Of a DNA stretch of 63,600 nt, positions 15,674 to 50,095 are shown in pieces. Numbering within the stretch: the first letter of the stretch is position 1; every line of letters begins with the position of its first letter. The notes beneath the pieces were generated by a model that worked only from the letters and a program-made list of their open reading frames with translations, was not told the origin of the DNA and made no database searches. The stretch is from Euryarchaeota archaeon UBA486. Its GTDB lineage: Archaea; Thermoplasmatota; Poseidoniia; Poseidoniales; Poseidoniaceae. A program made the position numbers and the translations under genes. The DNA lies in the NCBI GenBank assembly GCA_002497765.1, contig DAET01000045.1, positions 36,326-99,925 on the forward strand, given 5' to 3'.

Positions 15674-15698
15674 GGGAGTGGTGTAAGGGTTGAGTCCC

Positions 15699-24600: not shown

Positions 24601-24854
24601 CCGGCCCGACGGGTCGTGCTCCCGGTCCGAGTGGTCCTGCGCCTGGTCCAAGCGGTCCTGCGCCTGGTCCAAGCGGTCCTGCGCCCGGCCCCACCGGTCC
24701 ACCTGCTGAAGAAGCCCCCGTTGAGGAGGCCGAAGAAGAAGCTGAGATCGAGACGAGTGTTGACGAAGACGGCACAGAATGGTGGGAAGACGAAGACGGT
24801 ACCTGGTGGTACCGCCTAGCCGGCGAGGAAGAGTGGCAAGAGTACAACGAATGA
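15699..24854 (+). CDS. Giant (3,051 aa from first ATG) type-I anchored surface protein B: 7 x [CBM-like beta-sandwich + FN3-like] super-repeats, Ig-like array, TM, acidic/Pro-rich/Trp-rich tail
   Basis: Track ORF 15690..24854 starts at TTG. The first ATG (15699) gives MRSVRIVSPRATALLLVLMFIFADLSLPQ, a signal peptide. It is one uninterrupted 9.1-kb frame rich in N-x-S/T sequons. TM GLLAIVAVVLLGLLVMFM lies at aa ~2923-2948 of the track ORF. The tail is DDWDDEDEDDDDDDD...(APGPSGP)n...DGTEWWEDEDGTWWYRLAGEEEWQEYNE. Confidence 0.85.
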   Translation: MRSVRIVSPRATALLLVLMFIFADLSLPQTMEGWSELEDEPTVHRAVSYHAIHADTYITASAPTSTYNTSATGTLADGPAQESRLLLRFPMNYTASDTIHEASIDLECTTDALGPTELKAYVAHMDRFWNGSFASWVAYASNQLWSEAGGEAGADRGDWEPPALLSGNGTLTLNVTSIAQQAARSNSAYLSVIVASFGATYDCSMSEDTVAANRPELTLDVSAGSAATSGATVSTDLPVDEGAPWMESDFLLQPVTTPALSYDMNSGTDVEIQLSNADDWRSATDEAWHFSTLWSTFASTGTSGAYNLPSNLALTNGTAMHMRVRAVDSNDQWGAWDSTSFLLPNLNVVDNGDGTATMTLGPTDTGLEQDFLQDTFVNETRKTYNYGADALVESSMTSSKERLIHFRTSLNQLGLHDNLTIVNAELKLTRSSYSGDPVVSVHGMEESGLWAEEEVTWNQMSAGGVQWYDGGRSNGTATMALADGNQTSNSFTFDLDHAVQNYLDGGDENPLDLMVAVRGKFESYTNNEGIFFHSAEAANPSDAPSFSITYEWGSGAPPASVNLTAPADGLAVWNKTGDNLSGNTQPTLNWSQPATGDDIVFELATDEDFRLRQMRVDTRVDNDFSPTDGTLAMTGSKTLEVGNMYFWRMATVDSDNHYGEWVSSSFLVSSLESIWLGGDRYEFNLKHGNGSQDNQYPECMDTYIDSAAPNDNYDGDSEMTIDYSPFGGEITALLGCNLVSNLLPDGYAVESAHLRMSLTSTTFGTPTIGVWESNQNDWNAEDATWSSYDGSNTWATAGAKGAERGSLLDSVSVGSSFSEGDSVEWNVTLAVQNAMREDRRVDFIAGMLGAGSGGARTAYFSTAEDSMSSRPELSFVYVPGSDALPSNPAPALPLNGSWSIGTGVDLTPISQPELDWNFGGTMALAGYIVQLDTQADFSSVNSLTYTSWNDAGFDVTNTSFTLQSDLDEGKTWFWRVRAVSATNQIGNWSNVYHFQLPDLNTVVYNATKASVELRHHGALPHLSTPHLVDTYVVENGSGSDNTQENSTTLVVGETSTGYQAAALIRIPLSEVPQPSGARVTGAELSLFAEYGSVEDEPVAIRPVLQPWTTSANATTYDGTNAWAQRGGRAIGTDIGGYVDLVASVEDDWMDFDVTEAVQAALAAGQNHVSLMVYTSSQTTDEITFTSTEGSASERPYLTLTWEDGTVATPTVSGVNAAPTSGSIVWDTASHALQADRSPTFSWSYSSSTAATGWRVFIQADASNDMAGLYTYDSRTTPGAFDTTNLTFTPPQDLTFAQEIRWMVQPMNNGMLGPRSTSTIFYLPNDVGEEINSTHATLSIQEGSIIPSTAYPTVTSDTYLDTGNIYANRGSSSSLFVGRSQVSTNNPSLRSMSLVNMDFSSLPMPGTYEVVNASLEFTATNVYQNTFVAVGETISAWTESSVYAYPAGNNSTWASTGGYSGDDFDIPFNPAQWVNSTGTAAFNVTALVQHALANNMAELNVVLFPVERDNGVNGRVQFASSEATNIDVRPRLNLTYRTSAAWTPSSPTGLLPADGSTLWNTSQPRPSGLNDSDFSWTTSYSNETQLVACASDDPLFLDEEKTNCYNSNDILAGLYDNITIDLANNTVNSAELGKGDYWQYWRIRADQGERIGEWSSINKYRVPNDQGSDDGNGNHTVNLSRGSIFETTGLLPMVEDVEIDSNATVNRGSSNTMVLGVNSLGTGQSSILMEFDLSNIPWPSAMTPTQMMLRMYQPGVLGTSSTTIAAYPCSGFTESSVVWATAPTCSTSEITRSTLTLNNPFGWMEWDLTSLAQANIANGNTTMTFKLAMIGSTGSSHSFYSSEYSDATYHPHLVLDYVDNVNGIVPPAQPTLTSPADGQVLYAENDGLLTPSTQPALTWTPVSGATGYIVTIANESGVYKFRSWEDSEITNTTFRFEDNLTEGQLFSWWVQGVNQSIPGPSSSRWSFAVGAPDHTYNNDYTYTYRFQTGSEIAAFGHTNVQDTAVYSEYADTNFAGESTISAGSYCGTLWADECRINMALNAAQVPFAQYQQVHSASLGLYVESWTSVQGATSVSFNVHPITNTNWGAASATWNGTTAGGTWGAPGMQAGVDYGDAVSTTVVNVDTTGWIWFDVSTPGMTITSEQAWVIIATPNNGYAHASFYSGSATNVNFRPQMQFNTTNITSVAISPSGTPTTDADSAVNFNSVAYDHQTMVQSPPMTWTSSSGSIGSNGLFTPNTAGVTTITSCFGLVCGTQNITVTPGAPVDLIVTPLTATITADETLTINAQMADQHGNFLTGETIDITPSNGTMMGTTFMPYTAGSHTITVSHPASGQQVSVDVTVLPGAPSSLVMSGCGGTVPAGVWCDITLELYDQFGNALALSEAGNLTWTTTNGNYSEINDQYFPDHVGVWTLSVSSVSGVAAEMNITVGHGAIDFLELNASATSITADDRVYINTTRVDVRGNRLAVVLPADNWTKTSDGQLTPGAPAIWDPVKTGAKILEARYETTLTQITIDVAKGKIQTLRIEVDDVDSTWAHFDLTADDTLDADVFAIDAKGNQWAIVVNWTLDHPTMGDSSNFLEVLTGDTTTFTPYFASEDPYTMTATYDDGTTVHAVSINMTVDHGFLHTVSIEGTANDPDRSTGAVFELTSDYAVDFLSDLYDADNNRITSDGLTWVEVNVATGDTEDITTQLLLDGMRWEATMVGEWRIEAYQVSGTGFNVSDSITITVVHGEAVTVSADVSLSTPTAGDRVDIQVTGTDADGNQFPQNVEWTENGESVPTLSVITTSEGTYTYDAEVAGVHTLQYAVGGAVSTTEITVSAQSIVARLEVNLSADTVEQLESLDVSIRAFDAFDNEIDVPGSIQVESTGRGTAMMTSSDFWTITTLDDGPQTITVSVGAVRVNAEINVEGNLAGFFEAGGTLYYVGAGLLAIVAVVLLGLLVMFMRGGSTDDWDDEDEDDDDDDDAPSGPTGRAPGPSGPAPGPSGPAPGPSGPAPGPTGPPAEEAPVEEAEEEAEIETSVDEDGTEWWEDEDGTWWYRLAGEEEWQEYNE
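15858..22235 (+). repeat. Seven diverged ~325-aa (~980-bp) protein super-repeats inside the giant gene
   Basis: Recurring DTY-type openings are at track-ORF aa 57 (ADTYITAS), 377 (DTFVNE), 704 (DTYIDS), 1032 (DTYVVE), 1359 (DTYLDT), ~1698 (DVEIDS) and 2004 (DTAVYS). Each is followed by N-x-G...L-x-VG...[LI]-x-x-FDLS/IPLS...A-x-L-x-L and closes with (R)P-x-L-x-[LF]-x-Y (RPELTLDV, RPELSFVY, RPYLTLTW, RPRLNLTY, HPHLVLDY, RPQMQFN). FN3-like modules lie between them and end MHMRVRAV..WGAW, YFWRMATV..YGEW, WFWRVRAV..IGNW, IRWMVQPM, YWRIRADQ..IGEW, FSWWVQGV. Confidence 0.7.
22245..24425 (+). repeat. Array of roughly eight Ig-like (bacterial Big-type) domains in the giant protein
   Basis: ~85-95-aa units recur with the pattern ITVTPGAPVDLIVTP..ATITADETLTINAQMADQHGN.L, VTVLPGAPSSLVMSG, ITVGHGAIDFLELNA..TSITADDRVYINTTRVDVRGN, TVVHGEAVTVSADVSL..AGDRVDIQVTGTDADGN, TVSAQSIVARLEVNLSADTVEQLESLDVSIRAFDAFDN. 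Confidence 0.6.
24618..24701 (+). repeat. Four in-frame 21-bp tandem repeats encoding (APGPSGP)n in the cytoplasmic tail of the giant protein
   Basis: gctcccggtccgagtggtcct / gcgcctggtccaagcggtcct / gcgcctggtccaagcggtcct / gcgcccggccccaccggtcca. The two central units are identical. Confidence 0.85.
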
Positions 24855-24866
24855 GGAGGCTTTGAG

Positions 24867-27461
24867 GTGACCTTTCCAAGGGCTTGCGTTGCGTTGGTTG
24901 CGCTGGTCCTGTTGGGAACCCTGTCAGTTCATGCACCGGAGATGCTCGAAGAAGCCCCGCCTGCGATGCGCTCGGGAACGCCCGACCGTGTGATCATCGA
25001 TTCACCACCGACTTCGGTTTCAGCCGACGAGGTGGTCGTGTTTGAAGCCATCATCTACGACCCTGTCAACAATGTCTTGGCGGGCGACATTCACTGGTCA
25101 GCGAGCAACGGCAGCATTTCCGATGACGGGTTGTTTTACCCGTGGTCGGCCGGTTTGGTGGAAATCACCGCCGAACACAACGGGCTCGTAGCCCGCCACA
25201 ACATCAGTGTCGAAGCCGGTGTTCCCACCTCCATTGAAATTACTCGGTTGAGCCTGGGGGTGCTCGAGCCCACGACCCTCACAGCGGATGTACTGGACGG
25301 TCGTGGCAATCGGATGCCCGGTCCAGCCACCATGGTTTGGGACATTGATGGTGTCTATGCAGGGCTCGGCGAGCCCACGTGGACGGCAGAAGAACTCGGC
25401 GATGTCTCTGCACGCGTACGATTCAATCAACTGGAGGCACGAGCCACCATCACCGTAACGGCAGGTGCGCCGTACGCCTTTGTGTTCGAACAACCGCTGA
25501 TGGTTCGTGCTGGCACTCTTCAGAGCATCACGCCCAGTTTGGTTGACATCAACGGCTATGAAATGCCCCTTTCGGCGGTTGGGCCTTTGGCGTGGTTTGC
25601 CGAGAACGGTTCGTTCAACGCCCAGGGAGAATACCTGGCAACCAACACTGGGAAATGGCTGATCACCGTTTCCTCAGGCAACATCACGGGCAGCGGTACG
25701 CTGCAGGTGATTCCCGGTGATGCCGTAGCGTCCACGCTCAAGGTGGCGAATGAACCCGAGACCTACATGGCGGGCGAGTCGTATGAATTGGTCTTTGAAC
25801 GCCGAGATGTGAACGGCTACATCGGATTTGTTTCCCCTTCCATTCACGCGCTTTCGGCTTCATCGGGCGGGCTTTCCGTTGATGACGAAGGACGGGTGTT
25901 TTGGAACCCATCCGGCATTGGTCAAGCCACCATCACGGGTATGGACGGGACGGTTTTAGCCATGCTCGAGCTTGATGTCATGCATGGTCGGGCGATCGAC
26001 CTTGCCTTCCAGCTTGAACCACGGCAACCCTCTGCCGGAGAGCAGGTTGTTTTGCAGCTGGTCGCTGAGGATGTCAAGGGCAACCGATGGGTGGTGGACG
26101 GGAACATCACCATGGGCACGGGTGCCGCCGATGAACTCACGGACGATCTGACATATTCGCTTATTCAGGCTCAGTCCGCCCGCTCGTGGAAGTTTGACGG
26201 GAGCTGGTTTGACAACACCACGGGCGCCATGTTCACGGCCGACGTGTCGTTTGATGTTCAACCCGGTCGATTGGCCTTTATCGAACTCGAGGGGGAAGGA
26301 AGCCGCGTGCCTGCAGACGGTTCGCTGGACCTTAACCCGATGTTCTTCGATGCATACGGCAACGAACTCGAACCCATTGCCCTGAATTGGAGTTTGAACG
26401 GCAACGATATCACGCTCGAGATGCTGCTGAACGACGGCCGATGGACCGCAACCAGCGTTGGCGGGCATGAACTCCGTGTCAACGCTGATGGTGTCTTCGC
26501 TACCGTAAGGTTGACCGTTGTGGCCGGCAACGCCCACGGCCTCATCACCGATGCCGATGAAGGCCTTGTGGTGAATGCTGGACTACCCCACGACCTGTTC
26601 ATTCAGGTGGTTGATGTCCACGGCAACATTGCGGAATCGACCTCAGTCACGTCCTCACTCAACACATCGCTGGGTGAGCTTGAGGCCTCACCAACCGGTC
26701 TTGGCTACTGGCAGTTCACTGGAAAGCAGGTCGGCACCTACGAACTCGTGCTGGAGGACGAGGGAGCAGTCCACACCATCCCGTTGACCATCGAAGCCGG
26801 CTCGCCCGTTCGGATTCAGGCGACCATGAGTCGAGATGGCATTGCTGAAGGCGACGTGGTGTTGCTCAATGCGTTTGCCACCGACGTCTACGGCAACACG
26901 CTGAGCATTCCAAAGGCGAACACCAGCGTTTCCTGTACTGCAGGCCCGGCCTCGTTTGTCACCAACGGAACATGGGAAGTCGACGTGGAAAACGGCGGTA
27001 CTGACCGCTCGTGCACGGTGCGTTGGAGCGGTTTGCTTGCTCAAACGTTCTACGATGTCGATGAAGTCTTGTTGGGGGGCGCTGTTGGGTCAACGAATAC
27101 GGCCATGACCATGGCAGCGGTGCTTCTCTTCCTGTTGCTTGCCGTCCTGGTCACCCTGACCCGAAAGGCTGCAGAGGTTTCGAAAGAAGGCTGGGTGGAA
27201 GACGCCTTTGATGATGAGGACGACGACGATGAGGAGGATGAGATGCTTGGTAGTGCCGTTCAAGACGACACGCCGCTCCACGAGCGGCATGGGCTGACAC
27301 TGGAATCCATGAAAGCTCTGGCGGAAGAGGCCGGTAAGGTGGGGGTCATGCAGGCCACACCGTCCACCACGCAAGGACAAACCGGCTGGTATGTTGATGT
27401 CTCCGAGGAATTGCAATACTGGGAAGTCACGCCTGACGGCGAGTGGATACGGCATGAATGA
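24867..27461 (+). CDS. Type-I anchored surface protein C: signal peptide, Ig-like domain array, TM, acidic tail with Trp/Tyr-rich C-terminus
   Basis: 864 aa. GTG start 12 nt after the giant gene stop, preceded by GAGGAGG (24854-24860). Signal ACVALVALVLLGTLSVHA. Repeated Ig-like units (ISVEAGVPTSIEITR, ITVTAGAPYAFVFEQ, LQVIPGDAVASTLKV, LDVMHGRAIDLAFQL, VRLTVVAGNAHGLI, LTIEAGSPVRIQATM). TM AAVLLFLLLAVLVTL. Tail DDEDDDDEEDE...TGWYVDVSEELQYWEVTPDGEWIRHE. Confidence 0.8.
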   Translation: MTFPRACVALVALVLLGTLSVHAPEMLEEAPPAMRSGTPDRVIIDSPPTSVSADEVVVFEAIIYDPVNNVLAGDIHWSASNGSISDDGLFYPWSAGLVEITAEHNGLVARHNISVEAGVPTSIEITRLSLGVLEPTTLTADVLDGRGNRMPGPATMVWDIDGVYAGLGEPTWTAEELGDVSARVRFNQLEARATITVTAGAPYAFVFEQPLMVRAGTLQSITPSLVDINGYEMPLSAVGPLAWFAENGSFNAQGEYLATNTGKWLITVSSGNITGSGTLQVIPGDAVASTLKVANEPETYMAGESYELVFERRDVNGYIGFVSPSIHALSASSGGLSVDDEGRVFWNPSGIGQATITGMDGTVLAMLELDVMHGRAIDLAFQLEPRQPSAGEQVVLQLVAEDVKGNRWVVDGNITMGTGAADELTDDLTYSLIQAQSARSWKFDGSWFDNTTGAMFTADVSFDVQPGRLAFIELEGEGSRVPADGSLDLNPMFFDAYGNELEPIALNWSLNGNDITLEMLLNDGRWTATSVGGHELRVNADGVFATVRLTVVAGNAHGLITDADEGLVVNAGLPHDLFIQVVDVHGNIAESTSVTSSLNTSLGELEASPTGLGYWQFTGKQVGTYELVLEDEGAVHTIPLTIEAGSPVRIQATMSRDGIAEGDVVLLNAFATDVYGNTLSIPKANTSVSCTAGPASFVTNGTWEVDVENGGTDRSCTVRWSGLLAQTFYDVDEVLLGGAVGSTNTAMTMAAVLLFLLLAVLVTLTRKAAEVSKEGWVEDAFDDEDDDDEEDEMLGSAVQDDTPLHERHGLTLESMKALAEEAGKVGVMQATPSTTQGQTGWYVDVSEELQYWEVTPDGEWIRHE

Positions 27462-27969: not shown

Positions 27970-29367
27970 TCAGTTGTCGTCGTTGACTTCACTTCCGTCT
28001 CGGCTAAGGAAGGCATTCAGGGGTGTGGTGCCTTCTCGGGGCTTGACATTTCGTTGCCCGTAGGCATACCATGCGATGAGGCCAAGGAGGATGGCTCCGC
28101 CCCCGCCAAACAGGGCTTTCTTCCCCATCAACACCAGCATGAAGATGCCCGCTACGGTGCCGTAGATTTGAGGCAGCGGGTACAAAGGAGACCGGTAGGG
28201 AGGATTCCATTCGTGCTTTGGAGCCGCACCACGGAGCACGACGACCGTCAGATTCAGGACGATGAACACCATGAGAATGAACCCAGAAGCCAATTCTGCG
28301 ATGACGTGAACGTCGAATGAATAGATGGAGATGGCCATCAGCAGACCGGTGAGCAAAATGGGCCAGTGCGGTGTCTTGTATCGCTCGTTGAGTTCACCGA
28401 GAGGGGCTGGGAGCACGCCGTCCTTGGCCATGGCGTAGAGGAAGCGCGACGATGACAGGACACCGGCAAGGGCCATGGAGGCCATGGCGATGATGGCAAC
28501 CAACGAGGCGATCAGCACCACGGTGGTGCCTGCAACCGAGTCGGCAAAGACCGAGATGGGGTTTTCGACGGCATGCGGCGGGGTTCCGGTCATGAAAGCA
28601 CCGGGGTCCATCACAGCGGCCATGATGTAGGCCACGATGGCGTAGAGAAGGGTGGCGATCACAAGGGACTGGATCATCCCTCTCGGGAGGTTCGTTTCTG
28701 GGTCCAGGACTTCGCCACCGATGGCGCCGACTTTGATGGCTCCGGAAAAGGCGACGAACACGAGGGCGGCTGCCGTCCCCATGCTCAAAGTGACGGGTTG
28801 GAAATTTTCGACGGGTCGGCCAAGGTCCAGGTCAGAGGAGAACAAGGCCATGATGCACAACACGACGACCATGGCCATGGCACCCGTTACGATGGGGATT
28901 TGCACTTTTTTGATGGCCTTTACACCGGTCAGGTTCACGAGAAGAATGAACGCAAGAAGCACCATTGCAATGGCATTCGCGTTGACGTTATCAATGCCGT
29001 AATGGTCGGTGACCACTTTCATGTAGGCTGCGAATCCGACGAGGGCGAAGGCAGACTTCAACATAAACGAGGCAAACAAACCCAAGCCGCTGATGGTGCC
29101 AACGAGGTAGCCATAGGTGCGTTCTGCGTAGACATAGAATCCTCCGGATTGCGGCATGGCACTGGCCAATTCAGCCTTCGAGTAGGCGCTGGCGATCACC
29201 ACGCTGCCGGCCAAGATGAAGGCGAACCACATCCCGGGCCCCACCACTTCGTGGGCGAAAGCAGGGAGGAGGAAAATGCCCGATCCCAACATCGACGACA
29301 GTGAAAGAATCACGAGTGTTTTCAGACCGATGGTGCGGGCCATCTCAACTGCTTTCTCAGCGCCCAT
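27970..29367 (-). CDS. APC-superfamily amino-acid/polyamine permease
   Basis: 465 aa, ~12 predicted TM helices. N-terminal GLKTLVILSLSSMLGSGIFLLPAFA matches the APC consensus (GxG IF). Confidence 0.85.
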   Translation of the reverse strand: MGAEKAVEMARTIGLKTLVILSLSSMLGSGIFLLPAFAHEVVGPGMWFAFILAGSVVIASAYSKAELASAMPQSGGFYVYAERTYGYLVGTISGLGLFASFMLKSAFALVGFAAYMKVVTDHYGIDNVNANAIAMVLLAFILLVNLTGVKAIKKVQIPIVTGAMAMVVVLCIMALFSSDLDLGRPVENFQPVTLSMGTAAALVFVAFSGAIKVGAIGGEVLDPETNLPRGMIQSLVIATLLYAIVAYIMAAVMDPGAFMTGTPPHAVENPISVFADSVAGTTVVLIASLVAIIAMASMALAGVLSSSRFLYAMAKDGVLPAPLGELNERYKTPHWPILLTGLLMAISIYSFDVHVIAELASGFILMVFIVLNLTVVVLRGAAPKHEWNPPYRSPLYPLPQIYGTVAGIFMLVLMGKKALFGGGGAILLGLIAWYAYGQRNVKPREGTTPLNAFLSRDGSEVNDDN

Positions 29368-29473: not shown

Positions 29474-30928
29474 CTATTCTCCCAAATGCACGATGACCTT
29501 CATCTCGACGGCAATGGGCGTCGGAAGGGCATCGATGGCCAGGGTGGTTCGCGTGGGACCCACCAGCCCCAACGTCTCGGCCCACACCTCGTTGTAACCG
29601 GCGAAGTCGCGCTTCATATCCACGAGGAAGGTCGTTACATCAACGACCTGGTCAAACCGGGCACCGGCCTCCTCAACGATTCGTCGAACGTTTTCGACCA
29701 CGGCGTGGGTCTGTGCTCTGATGTCGTAGTCGAGCGGCTCCCCGTTCTCATCATGAATCGGTCCCCCTGGAATCGAGTTGGTGCCGGGTTGACGAGGCCC
29801 AACGCCTGAGAGGTAGAGCATGTCGCCGACTCGCCGAGCGTGAGGGTAGGCGCCCACCGGCTTGGGAGCCGCCGTTGTGTTGACCGAACCCTCGGCTTCA
29901 GTGGGGTCCCAAAGAGCCGGTCCGTTGGCCTCGGGGGTGGAGCGTTCCGAGGTTCCAGCTCCGCCGTCGGCGATTTCAGAGGCCGCCTGTTCGATGTTCT
30001 CATCGGTTTCCGTGCCGGTGTCCAAGACCCCACGCTCACCGTGGAAGTATTCGACATCGTCTTCGTCGTATTCTTTGTCGCCAACACCCGTGGATGTGGG
30101 GTCGACGTGGACCACAGCACCGCCTGCTCCGTGAATGGCCTCGTAGGCCAGGATCTTGCCGGTCAGGTCGTTGCGGTTTCCGTTCATCGCTGAGAGCCAC
30201 CACATGGGCTTGAAAGCCACGACTTTTTGGACGCGAATTTGCTGGTGAATCGTTCGAGACAACTGCCCAACGTCTTCGAGGCGGCCTTCTTCGAGGAATT
30301 CCAGAATCTTGCGGTTCCATTCGTCGTCCTTGAGCGAGTGGATTTTGTCATCGGCGGGTTCGATGAAATCCGTGAACATGCGGTTGGAGAGCGACATGGC
30401 CGTGATGGCGACGGCTCGCCGACCTTGGGATTTGATCACATCCAAGCATGATTTCGCCAGGACGGTGGTTTCACTTCGGTTGGCGTACATGTTGGAGGAC
30501 ACGATGACGGCAGGGATGGAATTGTCCGGGTTGAGCAGCGTCAATGCGACGACGGAGCCGACATCGATGGGGAAGCCCTTGTAGTTGACACACCGGCTTT
30601 GAAGTCCTCGGTTTCGGTTGGCGTCGTCCCACGCATGGGCAAATTCAGCGTCGATGTTGAAGGAATAGGGAATGGAGCCCAAATCGTGGAAGTCGTGGTC
30701 GACCATCACCCACTCGGGGTTGGGGTCGGCTTGGATTTGATGGCCGATGATGGAGGGCCACGTTGTAGAGTAGATGATGAGCAAATCCGCTTCAAGGTCG
30801 CGAATGGTTTGTGCAGCCTCGTCGTAGGCATTGCGCAGCGCTCGCCAACCGGGGTTCATGTCCGGGGCAAGCACCGTGTGCGGATGAACAGGGACCACGA
30901 ACGAGGCTACCACGCCACCTTCGCTCAT
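29474..30928 (-). CDS. Fusion protein: non-catalytic LigB-type extradiol dioxygenase alpha-like domain + acidic linker + RidA/YjgF (deaminase-type) domain
   Basis: 484 aa. The N-terminal ~290 aa are paralogous to the upstream dioxygenase but lack its His residues (STTWPS vs SPHWQT; MSLSNRMF vs NSLSHRHF). The linker is DEDDVEYFHGERGVLDTGTETDENIEQAASE. The C-terminal ~125 aa (PKPVGAYPHARRVGDMLYLSGVGPR...THAVVENVRRIVEEAGARFDQVVDVTTFLVDM...PTRTTLAIDALPTPIAVEMKVIV) are RidA/YjgF/UK114-like. The ATG overlaps the upstream stop (ATGA). Confidence 0.7.
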   Translation of the reverse strand: MSEGGVVASFVVPVHPHTVLAPDMNPGWRALRNAYDEAAQTIRDLEADLLIIYSTTWPSIIGHQIQADPNPEWVMVDHDFHDLGSIPYSFNIDAEFAHAWDDANRNRGLQSRCVNYKGFPIDVGSVVALTLLNPDNSIPAVIVSSNMYANRSETTVLAKSCLDVIKSQGRRAVAITAMSLSNRMFTDFIEPADDKIHSLKDDEWNRKILEFLEEGRLEDVGQLSRTIHQQIRVQKVVAFKPMWWLSAMNGNRNDLTGKILAYEAIHGAGGAVVHVDPTSTGVGDKEYDEDDVEYFHGERGVLDTGTETDENIEQAASEIADGGAGTSERSTPEANGPALWDPTEAEGSVNTTAAPKPVGAYPHARRVGDMLYLSGVGPRQPGTNSIPGGPIHDENGEPLDYDIRAQTHAVVENVRRIVEEAGARFDQVVDVTTFLVDMKRDFAGYNEVWAETLGLVGPTRTTLAIDALPTPIAVEMKVIVHLGE

Positions 30929-31827
30929 GCCTGTTCCTCCTCATGTGCATAGCAGGGCCATTCAACCACCGCATTTCCAGTCCCGATGATGGTGCCGTAG
31001 CCGTGCAGAATAGCAGGGTAGTCGGGCACGTCAAGGGTGGACAGCAACCAAGAAAGTCCGCCTCCATCACTTTCTGCGATGGCTTGTTCGGTGAACTCGG
31101 GCATTTCATCGAGAATGCGTTGCGCCTGTCCGCTCCGCATGTAGTCGATCATCCGCATGTCCCACAAATGCATGGCATGGCTCGTAATGTGCTCTTTGCT
31201 CATGTCTTCAGGCATTTCGGATTCGGTCGTGAAGTGTCGGTGCGAAAGCGAATTGCTGGCCAAAACGACCACCTTTTTCCCCGAGGCTTCGATAGCCCGT
31301 CGGGTCACTTTTCCAAGTTCCATCATGATTTCTTGCATGACTTCCACGGAGTAGTAGGCCGTGGAGCGATTGCTGGAAATGACCACCAGCGGTTTGTCCC
31401 AATCAGGGTTGAACAAGTGGCCGGTCGTGATCGTGCCGTAATCAACACGAAAATCCGGGTTTTCCATCATCTTCACGGGAAGGCCGGCGGCTTCGGCTTC
31501 GTCATGGATGGCTTTGGCGAGGTCAACATCCACGTTCATGTCGTAATGGTAGCGGAAGAGGTTCGGGAAGATGGGGTCGACGGAAAGGCCCTCAAAATGA
31601 GGCAAGCCAAGGAAGTGGGTTCCGACATAGGTTTGCCAGTGGGGTGAGAGCAACACGATGGCATCGTAGTCCTTGTCGGCCAGCGAGGCTCGAAGCCGTT
31701 CGTAGCCCCAGCGGAGTTGCTCCCAACCGCCTTCGGCCACCGGTTCGTTTTGGGGCGGGTTTTCTGCGTACACCAAGTGGGGTGGGTGGGGAGCGATGCA
31801 ACCAGCCACGATGCGACCTTTGCCCAT
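30925..31827 (-). CDS. Class III (LigB-type) extradiol ring-cleavage dioxygenase, catalytic beta subunit (AmnB-like)
   Basis: Track ORF 30925..31926 shortened to MGKGRIVAGCIAPHPPHLVYAENPPQNEP. Metal/catalytic His motifs are APHPPH, LLSPHW and LASNSLSHRHF, plus GYGTIIGTGNAVVEW near the C-terminus. Alternative starts are at 31926 and 31899. Confidence 0.75.
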   Translation of the reverse strand: MGKGRIVAGCIAPHPPHLVYAENPPQNEPVAEGGWEQLRWGYERLRASLADKDYDAIVLLSPHWQTYVGTHFLGLPHFEGLSVDPIFPNLFRYHYDMNVDVDLAKAIHDEAEAAGLPVKMMENPDFRVDYGTITTGHLFNPDWDKPLVVISSNRSTAYYSVEVMQEIMMELGKVTRRAIEASGKKVVVLASNSLSHRHFTTESEMPEDMSKEHITSHAMHLWDMRMIDYMRSGQAQRILDEMPEFTEQAIAESDGGGLSWLLSTLDVPDYPAILHGYGTIIGTGNAVVEWPCYAHEEEQA

Positions 31828-32014
31828 GGCCCAATGCAGGGCGGCGAGGTTTAATTCATCATCGGCACCTTTCGTCCGTTTCGGGGGACGAGGGGTCATA
31901 AACGACCTGCGGTGAGGTAGACCCATGGAGGCGTCCGCCGAGGAAACAACGTCCCTTCAGGTGGAGGCCCTGCCTCCCCGTTCGGCGACCTGGCGGGAGA
32001 CCTTTGACAACGTG

Positions 32015-32416
32015 ATGGCGCCCACTGCTTTTGGCATGGGCGCAGGTGCGTTGTGGGAAGCCCTCGCCATGCCCCACCTTTCCTACGGCTTGCCGAACCC
32101 ACCGCAAGGCGGATTGCTCCTCATGCTGTTGTTCGCTCCACTGCTTCATCGTCTGCTAACCAATCACCCGCAGAGCCGCTGGAAAGAGTATCTCGGTGGT
32201 GCTACGGCGCTCGCCTTCCCGTTGCTGCTGATTTGGTCGACCGGATTTGGTGGCTTTGTGTGCGGTGGCTATGTCACCGTGGTGGTGTGGATTTGGGTCA
32301 GCACGTCGTGGTGGCGTTTCCATCTCCCGCCGTTTCGGTTGGCCATCTGGCACACCATGGGCGTCAACATCGGCGCTCTCGGTGGGTCGCTGCTCTACTT
32401 CAGCATGATGGCTTGA
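32015..32416 (+). CDS. Hypothetical membrane protein
   Basis: Track ORF 31925..32416. Its first ATG overlaps the divergent dioxygenase ORF, so the internal MAPTAFGMGAGALWEAL start is preferred. It has four hydrophobic segments. The stop abuts the panB stop with zero intergenic bases. Confidence 0.4.
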   Translation: MAPTAFGMGAGALWEALAMPHLSYGLPNPPQGGLLLMLLFAPLLHRLLTNHPQSRWKEYLGGATALAFPLLLIWSTGFGGFVCGGYVTVVVWIWVSTSWWRFHLPPFRLAIWHTMGVNIGALGGSLLYFSMMA

Positions 32417-34048: not shown

Positions 34049-35500
34049 TCAGGGTTGCTGAACACAAATGTTGGTCAATTCCGAAAAGAAATTCACCGAC
34101 CATGCGCCACCTTCTCGGCCAACACCGGATTGCTTGACACCGCCGAAGGGCGTTCGCAGGTCTCGGTTGAGCCAGGTGTTCACCCAAACAATGCCGGTGT
34201 CAAGTCGCTGAGCGAAGCGATGACCCCGCTCGGTGTCCGCCGTCCAGACTGAACCTGCCAGCCCGTATTCTGTAGCGTTGGCCATCTCAACGGCTTCGTC
34301 CTCGGTGTGAAAGGCATGAAGCGTGACCACCGGCCCGAAAATTTCCTCGGTGGCCGTGCGAGAGGTGTGGCTCAAGCCTTCGATCACGGTTGGTCGCAAA
34401 AAAGCGCCTTGTTGAGAAACGCCCTCAACGGGGGCATCGCCCGAGGTCCCACCGGTGAGGACTCGCCCGCCCTCCTCGACAGCCAGTCGGATGTACGACT
34501 CCACCTTGCCTCGATGGTCGTGAGAAATCACCGAGCCCATGCTGGTCTGTTCTTCGCTCGGGTCGCCCACCGTGATGCTTTCGACGGCTTCGGTAAATTT
34601 CGATTTGAACAATTCGTAGATGGAGGCGTCCACTAAAATTCGTGAACCACAAAGACACACTTGGCCCGAATTGGTGAACGATGCACGCACCAGACCGGCC
34701 ATGATCTCGTCAAGCGGCGCATCGTCCAACACGACGGTCGCATTCTTGCCTCCCAATTCAAGGGAGAGCTTCTTGAACATGGGGGCGGCGGTGGCGGCGA
34801 CGATTTTCCCTGTGGCCGTGCCACCGGTGAACGAAACACCGCGAATGTCGGGATGTTCGACGATGGCCTGGCCGACGTCTGGTCCAAGGCCGTGGACGAG
34901 GTTGAACACCCCGCTGGGGAAACCAATGCGCTCCATCACCACGGCAAGGTGGTTGGCCGTCAGGGGGGTGAGTTCCGAGGGTTTCGCCACGATGGTGTTG
35001 CCCATCAGCAAGGCCGGGGCCACTTTCCACGAGAGCAGGTAGAGCGGAAGGTTCCATGGCGTGATGAGACCGACGCAGCCGATGGGTGAGCGATGAAGGT
35101 GATTGATGGCGCCGTGGTCGGTGAAGGTCGGGTCACTGTGCTGTGCCCCGAATTCAGCAAAGAAGCGAAAATTGGACACCGACCGAGCCGCATCAACTCG
35201 CCGTGCGAGGGCGATGGGTTTGCCCGTGTCCTTGCTCTCAAGTTGAGCGACGGTTTCACGGTCATCTTCCAGTGCATCGGCGATTCGGTGCAACCATGCG
35301 ATGCGCTCATCCATGGTGGTGGCGGCCCAAGCAGGGGCTGCTCGGAGGGCGGCCGCCGTCGCTGCCTCGACGTCGTCTGAGGATGATTTGGGCAGGGTGG
35401 TGATGACCTCGCCCGTGGCTGGATTCACCGTGTTGAGGGTGGTTCCGTTCTGGGCGGGAACGAAGGCGCCGTCAATGAAATTGAGCACCGGGTCCATCAT
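34049..35500 (-). CDS. NAD(P)+-dependent aldehyde dehydrogenase (muconate-semialdehyde dehydrogenase-like)
   Basis: Start moved to MMDPVLNFIDGAFVPA. That ATG overlaps the upstream stop as ATGA (35497-35500). Motifs: ITPWNLPL, SFTGGTATGK, LELGGKNA (catalytic Glu), FTNSGQVCLCGSR (catalytic Cys), EEIFGPV. Confidence 0.85.
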   Translation of the reverse strand: MMDPVLNFIDGAFVPAQNGTTLNTVNPATGEVITTLPKSSSDDVEAATAAALRAAPAWAATTMDERIAWLHRIADALEDDRETVAQLESKDTGKPIALARRVDAARSVSNFRFFAEFGAQHSDPTFTDHGAINHLHRSPIGCVGLITPWNLPLYLLSWKVAPALLMGNTIVAKPSELTPLTANHLAVVMERIGFPSGVFNLVHGLGPDVGQAIVEHPDIRGVSFTGGTATGKIVAATAAPMFKKLSLELGGKNATVVLDDAPLDEIMAGLVRASFTNSGQVCLCGSRILVDASIYELFKSKFTEAVESITVGDPSEEQTSMGSVISHDHRGKVESYIRLAVEEGGRVLTGGTSGDAPVEGVSQQGAFLRPTVIEGLSHTSRTATEEIFGPVVTLHAFHTEDEAVEMANATEYGLAGSVWTADTERGHRFAQRLDTGIVWVNTWLNRDLRTPFGGVKQSGVGREGGAWSVNFFSELTNICVQQP

Positions 35501-36615
35501 ATCACGTCCGGCTCGTAATTCCAGCGGTCTTGGTCGGGGTCCCACTCGTCCCATGTCGGCACGGTTTCGAGGACGTCAACGTAGTGTTCGGGCACAATGC
35601 CCGGCACGATGAAGGCTTTCTGCCGATGCAGCGGGTAGGGGTTTCGAAGGTTGATGCCCAGTACCCCCAGCAGGGCGCGGGCGACGTACCACGTGGCTTG
35701 GGAGTTCCAACCGTGGGCGATTTTCACCACAATGCCGAGTCCTTTGGGGAAGTCGGGATGTTCGATGGCCATGCCGAGTAGGCCGTCTGCGCCTTCCTTG
35801 GCAATCACCGTTCCTTCGCCGGCCTTCAAAATTGTGGAATCCAGCCGGTTGAAGCCGCCCACCAGGTCAGGGTGCCGGACCATCGCTTCCCAAATCCAGT
35901 CTTCGTCTTTGTCCCGCACAAGTCCGGCGTAAATCTGTGCCAGTTCAGCCACGGTGTTGGACACGGTGGGCAGGCCGCACCCGTCCTTAGCGATGCGGAG
36001 CGGCGACCAATCCTCACCGAGGTAGGTGCGCAACTGCTCCATGTAGGCGTGGAACACTTCGTGGTTGGGGAGGGTGTAGCCAGCACGATTCCAGCCCTTC
36101 TTCCGGCATCCACGGAGAATGGCGGCGTGTTCCCCAGAACACGTGTGGAACCAACGGCGAGGGCGGCGAACTTGACGACCAAACTGAATCAGCGGAACAT
36201 CCAGCGGCGTGAGCATGAGCGGCCACTCGGGTTCGGAGAGAAGGGATTGCGCCGCAGCGACGTGCTCGGTGTCACCGTTGTGGGAGGCCACGGCAATCGC
36301 TTTCTGTTCCCACGAACAATCCTCGAGTTCCTCGGTGAAAGCTTTGAGCATGAAGGGTTTCATCATCGAGCGGCCATAACACAACACGTTACCGCCAAAG
36401 GAATGGATGACTTCGTCGCCGTGAGCCCATGCCACTGCACCATGAATGGTGGTCTCTGAGACGCCGTTTCTTCGGTAGTCCACCAGCGGTTCCCACGCCA
36501 CTTCACGCCCGGTGGGAATCCCTTCGACTTGCTCGCCCAAGGGGGAGTCTGGGTACATCGCCGAACCCGGTTTGCCGGGCTGAACCGCCGAATACGTGTC
36601 GTGATGGATGCTCAT
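35497..36615 (-). CDS. Asparaginase-II family (Rhizobium etli-type) amidohydrolase-like protein
   Basis: 372 aa. GRSMMKPFM (S-x-x-K), ASHNGDTEH, HTCSGEHAAI and AKDGCGLPT match, from memory, the motif set of the PF06089-type asparaginase family. The start codon directly follows the LLM gene stop (TGAATG). Confidence 0.65.
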   Translation of the reverse strand: MSIHHDTYSAVQPGKPGSAMYPDSPLGEQVEGIPTGREVAWEPLVDYRRNGVSETTIHGAVAWAHGDEVIHSFGGNVLCYGRSMMKPFMLKAFTEELEDCSWEQKAIAVASHNGDTEHVAAAQSLLSEPEWPLMLTPLDVPLIQFGRQVRRPRRWFHTCSGEHAAILRGCRKKGWNRAGYTLPNHEVFHAYMEQLRTYLGEDWSPLRIAKDGCGLPTVSNTVAELAQIYAGLVRDKDEDWIWEAMVRHPDLVGGFNRLDSTILKAGEGTVIAKEGADGLLGMAIEHPDFPKGLGIVVKIAHGWNSQATWYVARALLGVLGINLRNPYPLHRQKAFIVPGIVPEHYVDVLETVPTWDEWDPDQDRWNYEPDVI

Positions 36616-37866
36616 TCAATCATCCTCCAGCATGGATTCGACCAAGGGGACGACCTGTTGCATGTAGGCAGTCATGTTCCGACAAACCCTGTCCGAGTCG
36701 TGATTGAAGAAGTCAAACCAAGCCATGATGCGATCCTCTGGGTGGAAACGCTCAACCATTTGCTGCGCCACTTCCTCCACGTTCCCGATAAGAGCGTTGT
36801 TGGCTGCCCGGCTGACCTTGTTGGGGTCGATGGTGCCTTCGAGGGCATTCCAGTAGGCGCTCAATGCCTGGTCGGCTTCAGCTTGGGCGGCTTTGGATTG
36901 TTCTTCCGGGGTGAGTCCTTCTTCTGCGTTCAAGAACACAAAACTGGTTCGCGGCATGTCGCCCCGGTTCCACGCACCACCATCGGCGTGGTACACTTCT
37001 CGCATGCGCTCGTGCGTTGCATCAATGACCTCTGGTGAAGTGATGGAGAGGTTGAACACTTTAACGGGCAGGATCGTGTTCACGAAGGTCTGGGCGCGTG
37101 GGTCGTGGGTGCCTGCCACCAGCCGAAGCAAGTCTTTTCTGAACTCGGTCGGAACGATCTTGAGGTCCTCAAAGACGTAGCGAGGTGGGATTTCAATGGT
37201 TTCAGGCCGATGGTCAAGCGCTTCAAATTCTACTGCGGCGTTTTGCACCGCCACCCAGTCCTCGTCGCTACGGAAATTGTCGCGTGTCAGGACGGTGGAG
37301 CGGATCATCTCGGAATTGATGACATCGCCACGGAGCAAGCGAAGGAAAATCTCTGCGGCTTCCATGAAGATTTGTCCGCGAAGGGCTGGCCACGCCGCTT
37401 CTTCGATGGCGTTGCGTGGCACAACACCGTACGGACGCGCCATGAATTCGAATCGGCCGGCTGAAAATCCAACGTGCAGGCATCGGTGCTCGTTCTCATC
37501 AAGGCCGTGCAGGCTCAGCAGGTTGGCCATGCGTTCGGCCTGAGCGATGGGGCCGCCCGAGGCGAGGATGGAGACCACAGCGCTCCCAATTTCGATGTTG
37601 TTGGTTCGCCGGAACGACTCAAGCGCAAGCTGTGGAAAATCCGTGCACAGGCCAACTTCCCCTTTCCAGTGGGGGACCACCGGCTTGGTGTTGGATTTCT
37701 GCGTCTCCGTCGACAAGTGTGCCTGAGCAATCCAACCCACGCCAAAGCCGAGTTCATCGGCGCAAGCCAACTGCTGGAAGTAGTTCCGTAGCATGGTGGC
37801 TTCGTTGGGAATGTGCCCGTGTTCGTCGGGCGTCTGCGAGATGGAGAAGAAGATGTCATGCTCCAT
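36616..37866 (-). CDS. LLM-class (luciferase-like) flavin-dependent oxidoreductase/monooxygenase
   Basis: Start moved to MEHDIFFSISQTP. TIM-barrel LLM pattern (ELGFGVGWIAQAHLS...; IGSAVVSILASGGPIAQAERMANL; GLHVGFSAGR). ~416 aa, longer than typical LLM proteins. Confidence 0.7.
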   Translation of the reverse strand: MEHDIFFSISQTPDEHGHIPNEATMLRNYFQQLACADELGFGVGWIAQAHLSTETQKSNTKPVVPHWKGEVGLCTDFPQLALESFRRTNNIEIGSAVVSILASGGPIAQAERMANLLSLHGLDENEHRCLHVGFSAGRFEFMARPYGVVPRNAIEEAAWPALRGQIFMEAAEIFLRLLRGDVINSEMIRSTVLTRDNFRSDEDWVAVQNAAVEFEALDHRPETIEIPPRYVFEDLKIVPTEFRKDLLRLVAGTHDPRAQTFVNTILPVKVFNLSITSPEVIDATHERMREVYHADGGAWNRGDMPRTSFVFLNAEEGLTPEEQSKAAQAEADQALSAYWNALEGTIDPNKVSRAANNALIGNVEEVAQQMVERFHPEDRIMAWFDFFNHDSDRVCRNMTAYMQQVVPLVESMLEDD

Positions 37867-37917
37867 GGCCACGCACCGGTCTGTCCACGGGGCCATGGCT
37901 CATAATGATGGTGAGCC

Positions 37918-38775: not shown

Positions 38776-39591
38776 TCAAATGGAGCGCAAGCGGCCACCG
38801 TCCACGGCCAAACTCACGCCACGGATGCCACCTGATGCAGGGAGGCAAAGGTACGTGATGGCGCTGGCGGTCTCGAGGGGGTCGATGAGCCGGCCGATGG
38901 GGACCTGCCCCAACCAACCCTCTCGAACAGCCTCGGCGGATTTGCCCGTCCGCTCCTGGATGGACGCCGAGAGGTTGCCGAGCCGTTCAGTATCGGTGAA
39001 TCCCGGCAGAACGTTGTTGATGGTGATGCACGGGGCCAACTCGTTGGACATGGATTTGGCCCACGAGGCCATGGCTCCGCGAAGGGTGTTCGAAAGGCCG
39101 ATGTTAGGAATGGGCTCCTTGACCGAGGTGGAGATGATCTGGACGATTCTTCCGTAGCCTGCGGTCTCCATGCCCGGGACAGCTGCCTTGACGAGGGTAT
39201 GTGCGGCGTGAAGATGGCGCCTAAACGGGGCGTCAAAGTCCTCGACGACGTTGTTCAAGAGTGGACCGCCGGGTGGGCCGCCTGCATTGTTGATGAGGAT
39301 GTGAACGGGGCCCAAAGTTTCGGCAGCCGATGCGAAGGCTCCGGCCAACCCATCGGTTTCTTCGAGGTCCAACATGAGGGCTTGGTGCCGTCCATCACCA
39401 AGGCCGGCGAGTTCTTCGCACAGCGCGGTCAGCGCTGCGCCGTTTCGGGCGCAAACGGTGATGTCTGCTCCAGCCTTCGCCATCATTTTGGCCGTTGCTT
39501 CACCGATGCCTTTGCTGGCACCACAAACAAAGGCGTGCTTCCCCTTGAGGGCGGTTGATGAGAACGGGTAGTCGTCTCCGAGGAGGTCCAT
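38776..39591 (-). CDS. SDR-family oxidoreductase (BKR-like atypical subgroup)
   Basis: 271 aa. GKHAFVCGASKGIGEATA (Rossmann loop) and LINNAGG are present. The usual YxxxK region reads LSNTLRGAMASWAKS: Lys is retained and no Tyr sits at the canonical position. Confidence 0.8.
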   Translation of the reverse strand: MDLLGDDYPFSSTALKGKHAFVCGASKGIGEATAKMMAKAGADITVCARNGAALTALCEELAGLGDGRHQALMLDLEETDGLAGAFASAAETLGPVHILINNAGGPPGGPLLNNVVEDFDAPFRRHLHAAHTLVKAAVPGMETAGYGRIVQIISTSVKEPIPNIGLSNTLRGAMASWAKSMSNELAPCITINNVLPGFTDTERLGNLSASIQERTGKSAEAVREGWLGQVPIGRLIDPLETASAITYLCLPASGGIRGVSLAVDGGRLRSI

Positions 39592-40438: not shown

Positions 40439-40523
40439 GTCATCGTCTCAAGTCGTTGGGCTATCATGCTTGTGTCCCTCCTTGAGGGGAAAGGGCTTTC
40501 ATACGCCCAACCATACACAAACC

Positions 40524-50025: not shown

Positions 50026-50064
50026 GGACTTCGCAAGATGGTGGTTTAGACATCAGTCCGTTTG

Positions 50065-50074
50065 TTTCATATAC
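50065..50074 (+). promoter_or_regulatory. TATA-like box (TTTCATATAC) 22-31 nt upstream of the surface protein F ATG (leaderless arrangement)
   Basis: tttgTTTCATATACtctctgtttcgtgctattaacATG, in the 70-nt divergent trmI / protein F intergenic region, one of the few AT-rich patches in the window. Confidence 0.35.
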
Positions 50075-50095
50075 TCTCTGTTTCGTGCTATTAAC

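Follow-up and report, generated by a model that had tools for sequence, protein, structure and literature searches.

A LigB-type dioxygenase subunit fused to a RidA domain at the end of a conserved gene module in Poseidoniaceae archaea

What might a planktonic marine archaeon do with a ring-cleaving dioxygenase whose non-catalytic subunit carries a deaminase-like domain? The question is raised by two adjacent LigB-family genes on the minus strand of a 63,600-nucleotide stretch of contig DAET01000045.1 (Euryarchaeota archaeon UBA486, Poseidoniaceae), hereafter the window, by which we mean the whole stretch of DNA analyzed. A reading made from the sequence alone (the sequence-only reading) had proposed a translationally coupled pair in which a catalytic AmnB-type gene precedes a non-catalytic AmnA-type paralogue that runs through an acidic linker into a complete RidA domain. 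We consider it likely that the pair encodes a heteromeric Fe(II) enzyme of the 2-aminophenol-1,6-dioxygenase type with a tethered RidA deaminase and that, together with a nearby aldehyde dehydrogenase, it carries out three nitrogen-specific steps. The domain identities, the catalytic residues, the conservation of the fusion and the surrounding gene set are established by the comparisons given below. The amnB gene and the fusion gene are the distal end of a conserved seven-gene module absent from the earlier reading, most importantly its amidohydrolase: a short-chain dehydrogenase/reductase (SDR), a luciferase-like (LLM) oxidoreductase, an aldehyde dehydrogenase, AmnB, AmnA, a class-3-asparaginase-like amidohydrolase and RidA (Table 1).

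The product of amnB belongs to the Pfam LigB family (PF02900; 84.4 bits against a cut-off of 26.3, E = 8.9e-24), and its best solved matches are the beta chains of 2-aminophenol 1,6-dioxygenase (8ihg_A, 3.7e-108), 2-amino-5-chlorophenol 1,6-dioxygenase (3vsg_B, 1.7e-104) and the actinobacterial ARO dioxygenase (7txy_B, 4e-93). Its alignment identity to solved aminophenol dioxygenase beta chains is 53-55%, and homoprotocatechuate dioxygenase 8iq8 is matched at only 3.6e-09. The top solved matches are all aminophenol-type beta chains and not DODA- or MEMO-like proteins, a placement that had been named as a possible refutation. Alignment with 3vsg_B and 8ihg_A finds His13, His62, Glu251, Tyr129 and His195 (CnbCb numbering) all kept. 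His13, His62 and Glu251 are reportedly the iron ligands of CnbCb and His195 its catalytic base (Li et al. 2013). By these alignments the protein is an AmnB-type catalytic subunit, nearer to the aminophenol than to the homoprotocatechuate dioxygenases. The maximal amnB open reading frame (ORF) spans 30925..31926, and the conserved start is the ATG at 31827 (MGKGRIVAG...). We rejected a longer N-terminus reaching 31926 because the upstream extension is impossible in loci L010 and L027 and because, in six other species loci, the match to the window protein starts at the same MGKGRIV.

The stop of amnB overlaps the start of the fusion gene in an ATGA on the coding strand (tcat on the plus strand), and this 4-nt overlap recurs in every one of the eight Poseidoniaceae species loci for which ORF ends were determined, as well as in the Bdellovibrionota-type loci L087 and L090. 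The aldehyde dehydrogenase upstream and the permease just downstream flank the pair in one order in the 96%-identical relatives and, by tblastn positions, in most of 80 species-representative genomes, with variants. The fusion gene (29474..30928) encodes 484 aa, in which Pfam recognizes LigB at residues 20-268 (1.5e-07) and Ribonuc_L-PSP at residues 352-481 (5.7e-24), both above their cut-offs. The solved matches of the N-terminal domain are alpha chains (7txy_A, 9.2e-41; 3vsg_A, 2.6e-40; 8ihg_B, 1.2e-37), and four of the positions kept in AmnB are changed in it (His13 to Val, His62 to Thr, His195 to Asn, Glu251 to Gln); the characterized alpha subunits likewise lack these four catalytic residues in alignment. 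The coupling, the gene order and the domain plan of the sequence-only reading are thus borne out, and E-values against solved structures of 3.7e-108, 9.2e-41 and 1e-25 rule out chance resemblance.

Three segments make up the tether between the two domains. The first, GDKEYDEDDVEYFHGERGVL (residues 283-302, nt 30023-30082), is a conserved acidic motif; then come a hypervariable stretch (residues 303-335) and the conserved GPALWDPTEAEGSVNT (residues 336-352). In an alignment of the window protein with 120 close relatives, column identity is 0.97 in the acidic motif and 0.52-0.56, with indels, in the variable part. The acidic motif also closes the tails of unfused AmnA proteins from Bdellovibrionota-type operons (P0126, P0279), and is therefore a trait of this AmnA clade; it is probably a docking element. 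An AlphaFold model of the fusion, built on an alignment of six sequences and with a mean pLDDT of 62, contains two folded domains and has pLDDT below 50 for residues 282-351, so that the tether is predicted to be largely disordered.

The C-terminal domain is a complete RidA/YjgF domain (PF01042, 84.9 bits against a cut-off of 27.3), although NCBIfam TIGR00004 scores it at 84.1, below its cut-off of 106.25. When the last 145 residues are searched by themselves, their best solved match is the 2-aminomuconate deaminase AmnE (6izh_A) at 9.6e-27, followed by a generic archaeal RidA at 6.9e-19. The fused domain shares with AmnE an 11-13-residue insertion in loop Lp2 that generic RidAs lack, and a neighbor-joining tree, without support values and with two outgroups only, places it with AmnE. 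Arg460, which aligns with AmnE Arg117, and Glu475 are invariant among the fusions, which removes the concern that the RidA half might lack its active-site arginine. Arg56, which holds the AmnE hexamer together (PMC6742747), is Glu in the fusion; this position concerns the quaternary state of AmnE and not catalysis. Assignment to the 2-aminomuconate-deaminase subfamily is supported but not proven, and draws on the E-value, the shared loop insertion and the gene context.

The aldehyde dehydrogenase gene lies 3 kb upstream of amnB on the same strand. The seven best solved matches of its product, from 3.3e-140 to 4e-134, are all 2-aminomuconate-6-semialdehyde dehydrogenases (AMSDH), among them 4u3w_A (3.3e-140) and 4i1w_A (2.8e-137), and it keeps the equivalents of catalytic Cys302 and Glu268 and of the substrate-carboxylate arginines Arg120 and Arg464. 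Its best NCBIfam model is that of 2-hydroxymuconic semialdehyde dehydrogenase (TIGR03216; 549.9 bits, below the cut-off of 693.25). The identities of AmnB, the dehydrogenase and the RidA domain together indicate that three consecutive enzymes of a modified meta-cleavage pathway are encoded. This type of dehydrogenase had been proposed from the sequence alone, with the permease just downstream of the fusion; both placements hold on the minus strand, which had been left unstated.

In other organisms, AMSDH-like dehydrogenases are themselves fused to RidA domains that are 46-56% identical to that of the window (P0127 at locus L093, P0169 at L092, and P0218). P0127 has a dehydrogenase part, 55% identical to the window enzyme, followed by three tandem RidA domains, which amount to a covalent trimer. 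On the P0169 contig the dehydrogenase is apparently split into exon-like pieces, which suggests a eukaryotic host, and a NadA gene lies 3 kb away; the hosts of all three are probably eukaryotic microbes. A further candidate, P0122 from the Diplonema japonicum transcriptome (EukProt; 430 aa, 52% identical to the archaeal RidA domain), was rejected as a eukaryotic LigB::RidA fusion, having three tandem RidA domains and no LigB domain. That RidA is joined to the first enzyme in some lineages and to the second in others indicates that the three proteins work together, and the dehydrogenase::RidA fusions argue that RidA acts after the dehydrogenase.

The AmnA::RidA fusion is widely conserved. Its 120 best homologous clusters at 90% identity are all 470-488 aa long, contain both domains and come from many independent assemblies. 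In a scan that took a single representative genome for each species, and from which the 80 best of 453 confirmed matches were kept, all 80 loci carry the full-length fusion at 74-99% identity to the window protein, including those in the original MG-II genome CM001443.1 and in a long-read-polished 955-kb contig; all but one of the 80 records are labelled Poseidoniales, Poseidoniaceae, Poseidonia or unclassified archaeon. The record titled 'Verrucomicrobiales bacterium ARS100' (L019, NZEQ01000011.1) bears the Poseidoniaceae syntenic block in full; its proteins are 46-94% identical to their window counterparts (most 74-94%; the fusion 86%), and it is probably a mis-binned archaeal contig. A frameshift or assembly error joining two genes might seem to be suggested by the separate AmnA and RidA genes of Bdellovibrionota. 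Because the same 470-488-aa frame recurs in the 120 independent clusters and in at least 80 species genomes, with a strongly conserved tether motif in frame, we reject this explanation as having a negligible probability. One 571-aa homologue, P0128, was set aside, both of its halves looking frameshifted or garbled.

Among representatives at 50% identity, further full-length fusions were found at 38-49% identity (P0121, P0123, P0129), of which P0123 is judged bacterial from a type II secretion gene on its contig. Listed by locus, the fusions beyond the 80 stand at L084, which is bacterial and bears a type II secretion system gene, and at L086 and L089; the fusion is present in these as well; it is thus not confined to archaea but present in other lineages, at least one of them bacterial. 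Locus L084 has SDR, LLM, amidohydrolase, dehydrogenase, AmnB and AmnA::RidA in one operon. In L090, a Bdellovibrionaceae metagenome-assembled genome (MAG), one operon encodes SDR, LLM, dehydrogenase, AmnB, AmnA, amidohydrolase and RidA, with AmnA and RidA separate; the bacterial L087, whose amidohydrolase has close homologues labelled Bdellovibrionales, has the operon SDR, dehydrogenase, AmnB, AmnA, amidohydrolase and RidA, again with AmnA and RidA separate and with no LLM. Smaller sets occur on the short contig L089 (amidohydrolase, AmnB, AmnA::RidA), in L091, a MAG labelled Acidobacteria (AmnB, AmnA and amidohydrolase only), and in L086 (MAG GCA_023250635.1, JAHFAI010000119.1), in which AmnB and AmnA::RidA are accompanied by a PF04199 cyclase/arylformamidase-family hydrolase. 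The L086 fusion has a short linker, and its contig also encodes a PF00443 ubiquitin C-terminal hydrolase family protein, unusual for a prokaryote. Other AmnA-like fusions were seen in Rhodospirillaceae MAGs and a JGI metagenome: in P0177 (1034 aa) an AmnA-like LigB domain is combined with a branched-chain amino-acid ABC permease domain and an alpha/beta hydrolase, and in P0201 a LigB domain is combined with the permease domain.

Among the best 80 loci, every Poseidoniaceae locus with a long enough upstream flank has the LLM-amidohydrolase-dehydrogenase block no more than 10 kb from amnB, even where the block is inverted. Between the window and L090, identity is 72% for the amidohydrolase, 65% for AmnB, 57% for AmnA, 54-56% for RidA, 49% for SDR, 47% for LLM and 46% for the dehydrogenase. 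The module is common to Poseidoniaceae, Bdellovibrionota and other bacteria, and has probably been exchanged horizontally. Comparison of the gene orders suggests that removal of the amidohydrolase gene from between amnA and the RidA gene opened the way for the fusion; in a neighbor-joining tree without support values, unfused bacterial AmnA proteins fall among the fused ones.

Upstream of the pair on the minus strand, the genes in the window run in the order SDR, a TPR protein, LLM, amidohydrolase and dehydrogenase; a LON-substrate-binding-domain protein and PanB are inserted next, and a divergent small membrane protein precedes amnB and the fusion. The LLM, amidohydrolase and dehydrogenase genes are translationally coupled: the LLM stop TGA directly abuts the amidohydrolase ATG, and the amidohydrolase stop overlaps the dehydrogenase start (ATGA at 35497-35500). 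Of all module members the amidohydrolase is the best conserved, with 72% identity to its bacterial counterparts in both L090 and L091, and it stands beside amnBA in all of the lineages examined but L086. Among solved structures it best matches the class-3 asparaginases of Rhizobium etli (7os3, 1e-16); it keeps both Ser-Lys tandems and both zinc-site Cys of ReAV, with Glu at the position of the zinc ligand Lys138, and ends in a Trp/Asp-rich motif, PTWDEWDPDQDRWNYEPDVI, also present in the L089 homologue. The LLM oxidoreductase is divergent, nine of 11 family members matching PF00296 (best 7.2e-07), and is 42% identical to its L084 and 47% to its L090 counterpart; an SDR homologue of 35-49% identity heads the bacterial operons L084, L087 and L090. 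The amino-acid permease is tied to the module in Poseidoniaceae only. It lies downstream in most Poseidoniaceae loci, with no match found in several (e.g. L037-L041, L048-L049 and L051), nor in the bacterial and unassigned loci, and it is not one conserved orthologue, since its identities fall in separate clusters of about 45-50%, 62-64% and at least 85%.

Table 1. Coordinates of the module genes, fusion domains and adjoining permease in the window.
Feature	Position	Strand	Remarks
APC-family amino-acid permease	27970..29367	minus	PF13520 7.4e-40; directly downstream of the fusion
RidA/YjgF domain, 2-aminomuconate-deaminase-like (assignment supported, not proven), residues 353-484 and stop	29474..29872	minus	PF01042
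Tether, residues 279-352	29873..30094	minus	20 Asp+Glu versus 3 Lys+Arg
AmnA-like domain, non-catalytic dioxygenase paralogue, residues 1-278	30095..30928	minus	
ATGA stop/start overlap	30925..30928	minus	Translational coupling of amnB and the fusion gene; direct sequence reading
amnB-like gene, predicted catalytic beta subunit, class III (LigB-type) extradiol dioxygenase	30925..31827	minus	300 aa
Aldehyde dehydrogenase, AmnC/NbaE type (2-aminomuconate-6-semialdehyde dehydrogenase)	34049..35500	minus	483 aa
Class-3-asparaginase-like amidohydrolase	35497..36615	minus	PF06089 1.4e-47
Divergent luciferase-like (LLM) oxidoreductase	36616..37896	minus	Likely start Met11
Short-chain dehydrogenase/reductase (SDR)	38776..39591	minus	PF13561, PF00106; module head

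From these identities we infer the reactions, their order, a role for the tether and a class of substrate. The 300-aa AmnB would hold the active site and its 484-aa partner would provide the non-catalytic AmnA subunit, from which an acidic tether of about 75 residues would hold an enamine/imine deaminase domain of the 2-aminomuconate-deaminase kind. AmnB/AmnA would open the ring of an o-aminophenol to give 2-aminomuconic semialdehyde, the dehydrogenase would oxidize the semialdehyde to 2-aminomuconate, and the tethered RidA domain would hydrolyze the enamine/imine of 2-aminomuconate to 2-oxohex-3-enedioate (4-oxalocrotonate) and ammonium. Tethering would keep deaminase and dioxygenase close together and at a fixed stoichiometry, a proposal strengthened by the occurrence of dehydrogenase::RidA fusions elsewhere. 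RidA active sites sit between the subunits of a trimer, so the tethered domains must trimerize and would thereby gather several dioxygenase tetramers. In the characterized enzymes neither AmnB nor AmnA is soluble alone, AmnB depending on its partner for assembly too, and two alpha-beta dimers pair through their beta subunits with the alpha subunits at the periphery (PMC10470539). The same work reports that 2-aminomuconic semialdehyde cyclizes spontaneously to picolinate within minutes, its quick removal being a recognized problem of the pathway (PMC10470539). The amidohydrolase, LLM and SDR may prepare the aminophenol from a natural amide-bearing precursor, or may process an amide after ring opening. 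These conserved partners, above all the amidohydrolase, suggest that the substrate is not plain 2-aminophenol; most likely it is a naturally occurring o-aminophenol in which the nitrogen or the carboxyl group is hidden in an amide.

Several observations weigh against this scheme. No component matches an NCBIfam equivalog above its cut-off. Genes for 4-oxalocrotonate decarboxylase, 2-oxopent-4-enoate hydratase, 4-hydroxy-2-oxovalerate aldolase and acetaldehyde dehydrogenase, the first three kinds of which the sequence-only reading had likewise placed outside the window, are absent from its 47 ORFs scanned with Pfam (every non-shadow ORF of at least 170 aa and two shorter ones, leaving out two giant surface proteins), and the same four are not found within 10 kb of the pair in L001-L003, L084, L086, L087, L090 or L091. 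The constant neighbor in their place is the SDR, and neither the window nor the copies examined hold a complete amn-type modified meta-cleavage operon. The classical amn pathway gives no role to the amidohydrolase, the LLM or the SDR, even though no other member is tied as closely to amnBA as the amidohydrolase, as L091 illustrates. The RidA domain had been read as being of the 2-aminomuconate-deaminase type; the best solved match and the loop insertion uphold this, but its identity to AmnE is 42% against 40% to a generic archaeal RidA. The fusion itself joins the non-consecutive steps one and three. Ring cleavage and deamination are physically linked, as had been claimed, but the added idea that the fusion brackets an unstable intermediate is a conjecture, and with a half-life of about 160 min (bioRxiv 10.64898/2026.06.05.730449) 2-aminomuconate is stable enough that its channelling to the deaminase is not obviously needed.

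The last point leads to a different order of events, in which the tethered RidA domain hydrolyzes the imine tautomer of 2-aminomuconic semialdehyde to 2-hydroxymuconic semialdehyde before it can cyclize to dead-end picolinate, and the dehydrogenase oxidizes the hydroxy compound afterwards. Fusions usually link consecutive steps, and it is to the dioxygenase that RidA is tethered; the best NCBIfam model of the dehydrogenase, at 550 bits, is also that of the 2-hydroxymuconic semialdehyde enzyme. In the catabolism of 4-amino-3-hydroxybenzoate by Bordetella sp. 10d, a deaminase reportedly acts on a 2-aminomuconic semialdehyde derivative. The published stabilities agree with this order, the semialdehyde turning to picolinate within minutes (PMC10470539) and 2-aminomuconate being comparatively stable (bioRxiv 10.64898/2026.06.05.730449). 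We nevertheless think it unlikely, because AMSDH-like dehydrogenases fused directly to RidA elsewhere place RidA after the dehydrogenase, the best solved matches of the dehydrogenase and of the RidA domain are aminomuconate semialdehyde dehydrogenases and 2-aminomuconate deaminase, respectively, and in Bdellovibrionota another gene stands between amnA and the RidA gene. The amidohydrolase leads elsewhere, namely to a module that degrades a hydroxylated N-heterocycle or an anilide rather than a carbocyclic aminophenol: LLM would hydroxylate the ring, the AmnBA-like enzyme open it, the dehydrogenase oxidize the aldehyde and the asparaginase-like enzyme hydrolyze the amide thus formed, and RidA would then deaminate a small enamine (e.g. 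3-aminoacrylate) and SDR reduce the semialdehyde that this yields, an ending that resembles the Rut pyrimidine pathway. The Rut pathway comprises a luciferase-like enzyme, an amidohydrolase, a RidA-family protein and a reductase, the same types of parts as the module, and the standalone L090 RidA matches RutC at 1.2e-14. Such a scheme gives all seven genes a role, where the classical one covers only four, and it suits an amidohydrolase that is the best conserved member between archaeon and bacterium (72%), the sole partner of amnBA in L091, and replaced beside the fusion in L086 by the PF04199 hydrolase. It also appears unlikely to us, given that AmnB is 53-55% identical to characterized aminophenol dioxygenases with the same active-site residues, that the two arginines by which dehydrogenases of this type bind the distal carboxylate of 2-aminomuconic semialdehyde are both present, that the fused RidA domain matches AmnE (9.6e-27) far better than RutC (9.2e-07, NCBIfam), and that nothing points directly to any particular heterocycle. 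Very improbable, finally, is a RidA domain fused by chance as a general scavenger of reactive enamines (e.g. 2-aminoacrylate), with no dedicated role in a pathway. The full RidA signature, including its Arg, and the near-equal identities to AmnE and to a generic archaeal RidA would fit a scavenger, but RidA is constant in the gene set, fused or separate, in archaeal and several bacterial lineages, the AmnE-type loop insertion that generic RidAs lack is present, and domains 46-56% identical to it are independently fused to AMSDH-like dehydrogenases. A fungal deaminase hydrolyzes 2-aminomuconate much faster than 2-iminopropanoate or 2-aminoacrylate (bioRxiv 10.64898/2026.06.05.730449).

Set beside known systems, the pair resembles AmnBA/CnbCab of Pseudomonas, Comamonas and Burkholderia (8ihg, 3vsg), which likewise consist of paralogous LigB-type subunits with the beta gene before the alpha gene, the beta subunit having the His/His/Glu iron site and catalytic His that the alpha subunit lacks; identity to the window pair is 53-55% for beta and 29-31% for alpha. 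It differs in that the window alpha subunit is extended at its C-terminus by an acidic stretch and a RidA domain, the organism is a planktonic archaeon and not a nitroarene degrader, and the neighbors are amidohydrolase, LLM and SDR rather than lower-pathway genes of the amnDEFGH type. With the deaminases AmnE, AmnD and NbaF (6izh), the RidA domain shares its fold, the catalytic Arg and Glu and the long Lp2 insertion; unlike these free-standing proteins, it is only 42% identical, is covalently attached to a dioxygenase alpha subunit, and has Glu for the hexamer-forming Arg56 of AmnE. The ARO microcompartment of Actinobacteria (7txy; PMC10470539) contains the same early enzymes in physically organized form, and its lower-pathway genes are often elsewhere too. 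There, however, AmnAB and the semialdehyde dehydrogenase are held in a protein shell by encapsulation peptides, whereas the window system has a covalent tether and no shell genes; the physical organization of both suggests a response to the unstable semialdehyde. The late steps of the kynurenine route in Burkholderia, Pseudomonas fluorescens and fungi employ the same kinds of dehydrogenase and deaminase (AMSDH/NbaE and 2-aminomuconate deaminase), but that route obtains the semialdehyde from 3-hydroxyanthranilate through a cupin dioxygenase and a decarboxylase, genes for which are not near the window pair, in place of a LigB-type two-subunit dioxygenase. As for the amidohydrolase, it shares with ReAIV and ReAV of Rhizobium etli (PF06089) the family signature, both Ser-Lys tandems and both zinc-site Cys, and is distinguished by the weakness of the match (1e-16), the exchange of Lys138 for Glu and its place in an aromatic ring-cleavage operon. 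Because of this place, its substrate is probably not free asparagine.

The remainder of the window is archaeal in character, as its genes for GatD, LonB, TFIIB, RFC and an archaeal A24 peptidase indicate, and the window has 99% identity to a Poseidoniaceae MAG. The GatD-type asparaginase-domain protein (archaeal Glu-tRNA-Gln amidotransferase subunit D; 8596-9978) lies 25 kb from the module and is unrelated to its class-3-like amidohydrolase. Divergent from amnB, a 163-aa hydrophobic protein with no family match (31925-32416, plus strand) keeps its position in all Poseidoniaceae loci whose flank reaches it, with sequence identity falling to 32-40%, and is absent from the bacterial versions of the locus. 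Two giant surface proteins lie side by side at 15690-24854 (3054 aa) and 24867-27461 (864 aa), both of which carry Ig/CBM-like repeats and share a signal-like N-terminus and, at the C-terminus, a membrane helix with an acidic cytoplasmic tail; these tails close with a similar Trp-rich motif (…WWYRLAGEEEWQEYNE and …WEVTPDGEWIRHE), and that of the 3054-aa protein also bears a (PGPSGPA)n repeat. Three further very large predicted proteins, at 40437-43436, 45082-49101 and 49934-53590, include a GDSL lipase with thrombospondin type 3 repeats, an Ig-like-repeat protein with a zinc-ribbon-like C-terminal motif and a 1218-aa protein with no Pfam match.

The domains of the fusion are known, and automated pipelines already label such proteins '2-aminomuconate deaminase' or 'RidA/aromatic ring-opening dioxygenase'; the fusion is new, as is the surrounding gene set, which the classical pathway leaves unexplained. 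The sequence-only reading knew of no prior description, and literature searches on MGII/Poseidoniales with aminophenol, aminomuconate, kynurenine or extradiol chemistry likewise found neither the fusion nor the module, nor an aminophenol pathway in Marine Group II; those on RidA with asparaginase and luciferase-like proteins found neither fusion nor module described. An AmnA::RidA fusion is not listed in the available text and supplements of an archaeal fusion/fission survey (PMC11237513). Until 2023, meta-cleavage of 2-aminophenol had been shown only in nitrobenzene and chlorobenzene degraders, and the actinobacterial microcompartment appears to use the same early steps (PMC10470539).

We also entertain, tentatively and with more doubt than belief, a joint reading in which archaea and Bdellovibrionota consume an unrecognized aromatic nitrogen compound of seawater and prey biomass and, in addition, the fusion self-assembles into a shell-free multi-enzyme cluster that confines the semialdehyde. 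If this were true, the compound could be an amide-masked o-aminophenol or a hydroxylated N-heterocycle supplying carbon and up to two ammonia per molecule. The joining of a two-fold alpha2beta2 dioxygenase, its alpha subunits peripheral, to a three-fold RidA trimer could drive self-assembly of a cluster into which the conserved acidic motif might also recruit the dehydrogenase, making it an analogue of the ARO microcompartment with covalent tethers in place of a shell.

Every species genome of Poseidoniaceae (Marine Group IIa) recovered keeps the upper pathway, under purifying selection, and the pathway is present in predatory and other bacteria, which points to a natural and probably widespread aminophenolic or related N-aromatic substrate in the ocean. 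The invariant asparaginase-like amidohydrolase points to a step missing from the textbook pathway, and a deaminase tethered to the helper subunit of a dioxygenase would be a new way to organize a pathway with unstable intermediates. Each component is a small, soluble enzyme amenable to expression in Escherichia coli, and the question of their substrate may thus become a testable handle on the diet of uncultured archaea that are ecologically dominant in the surface ocean.

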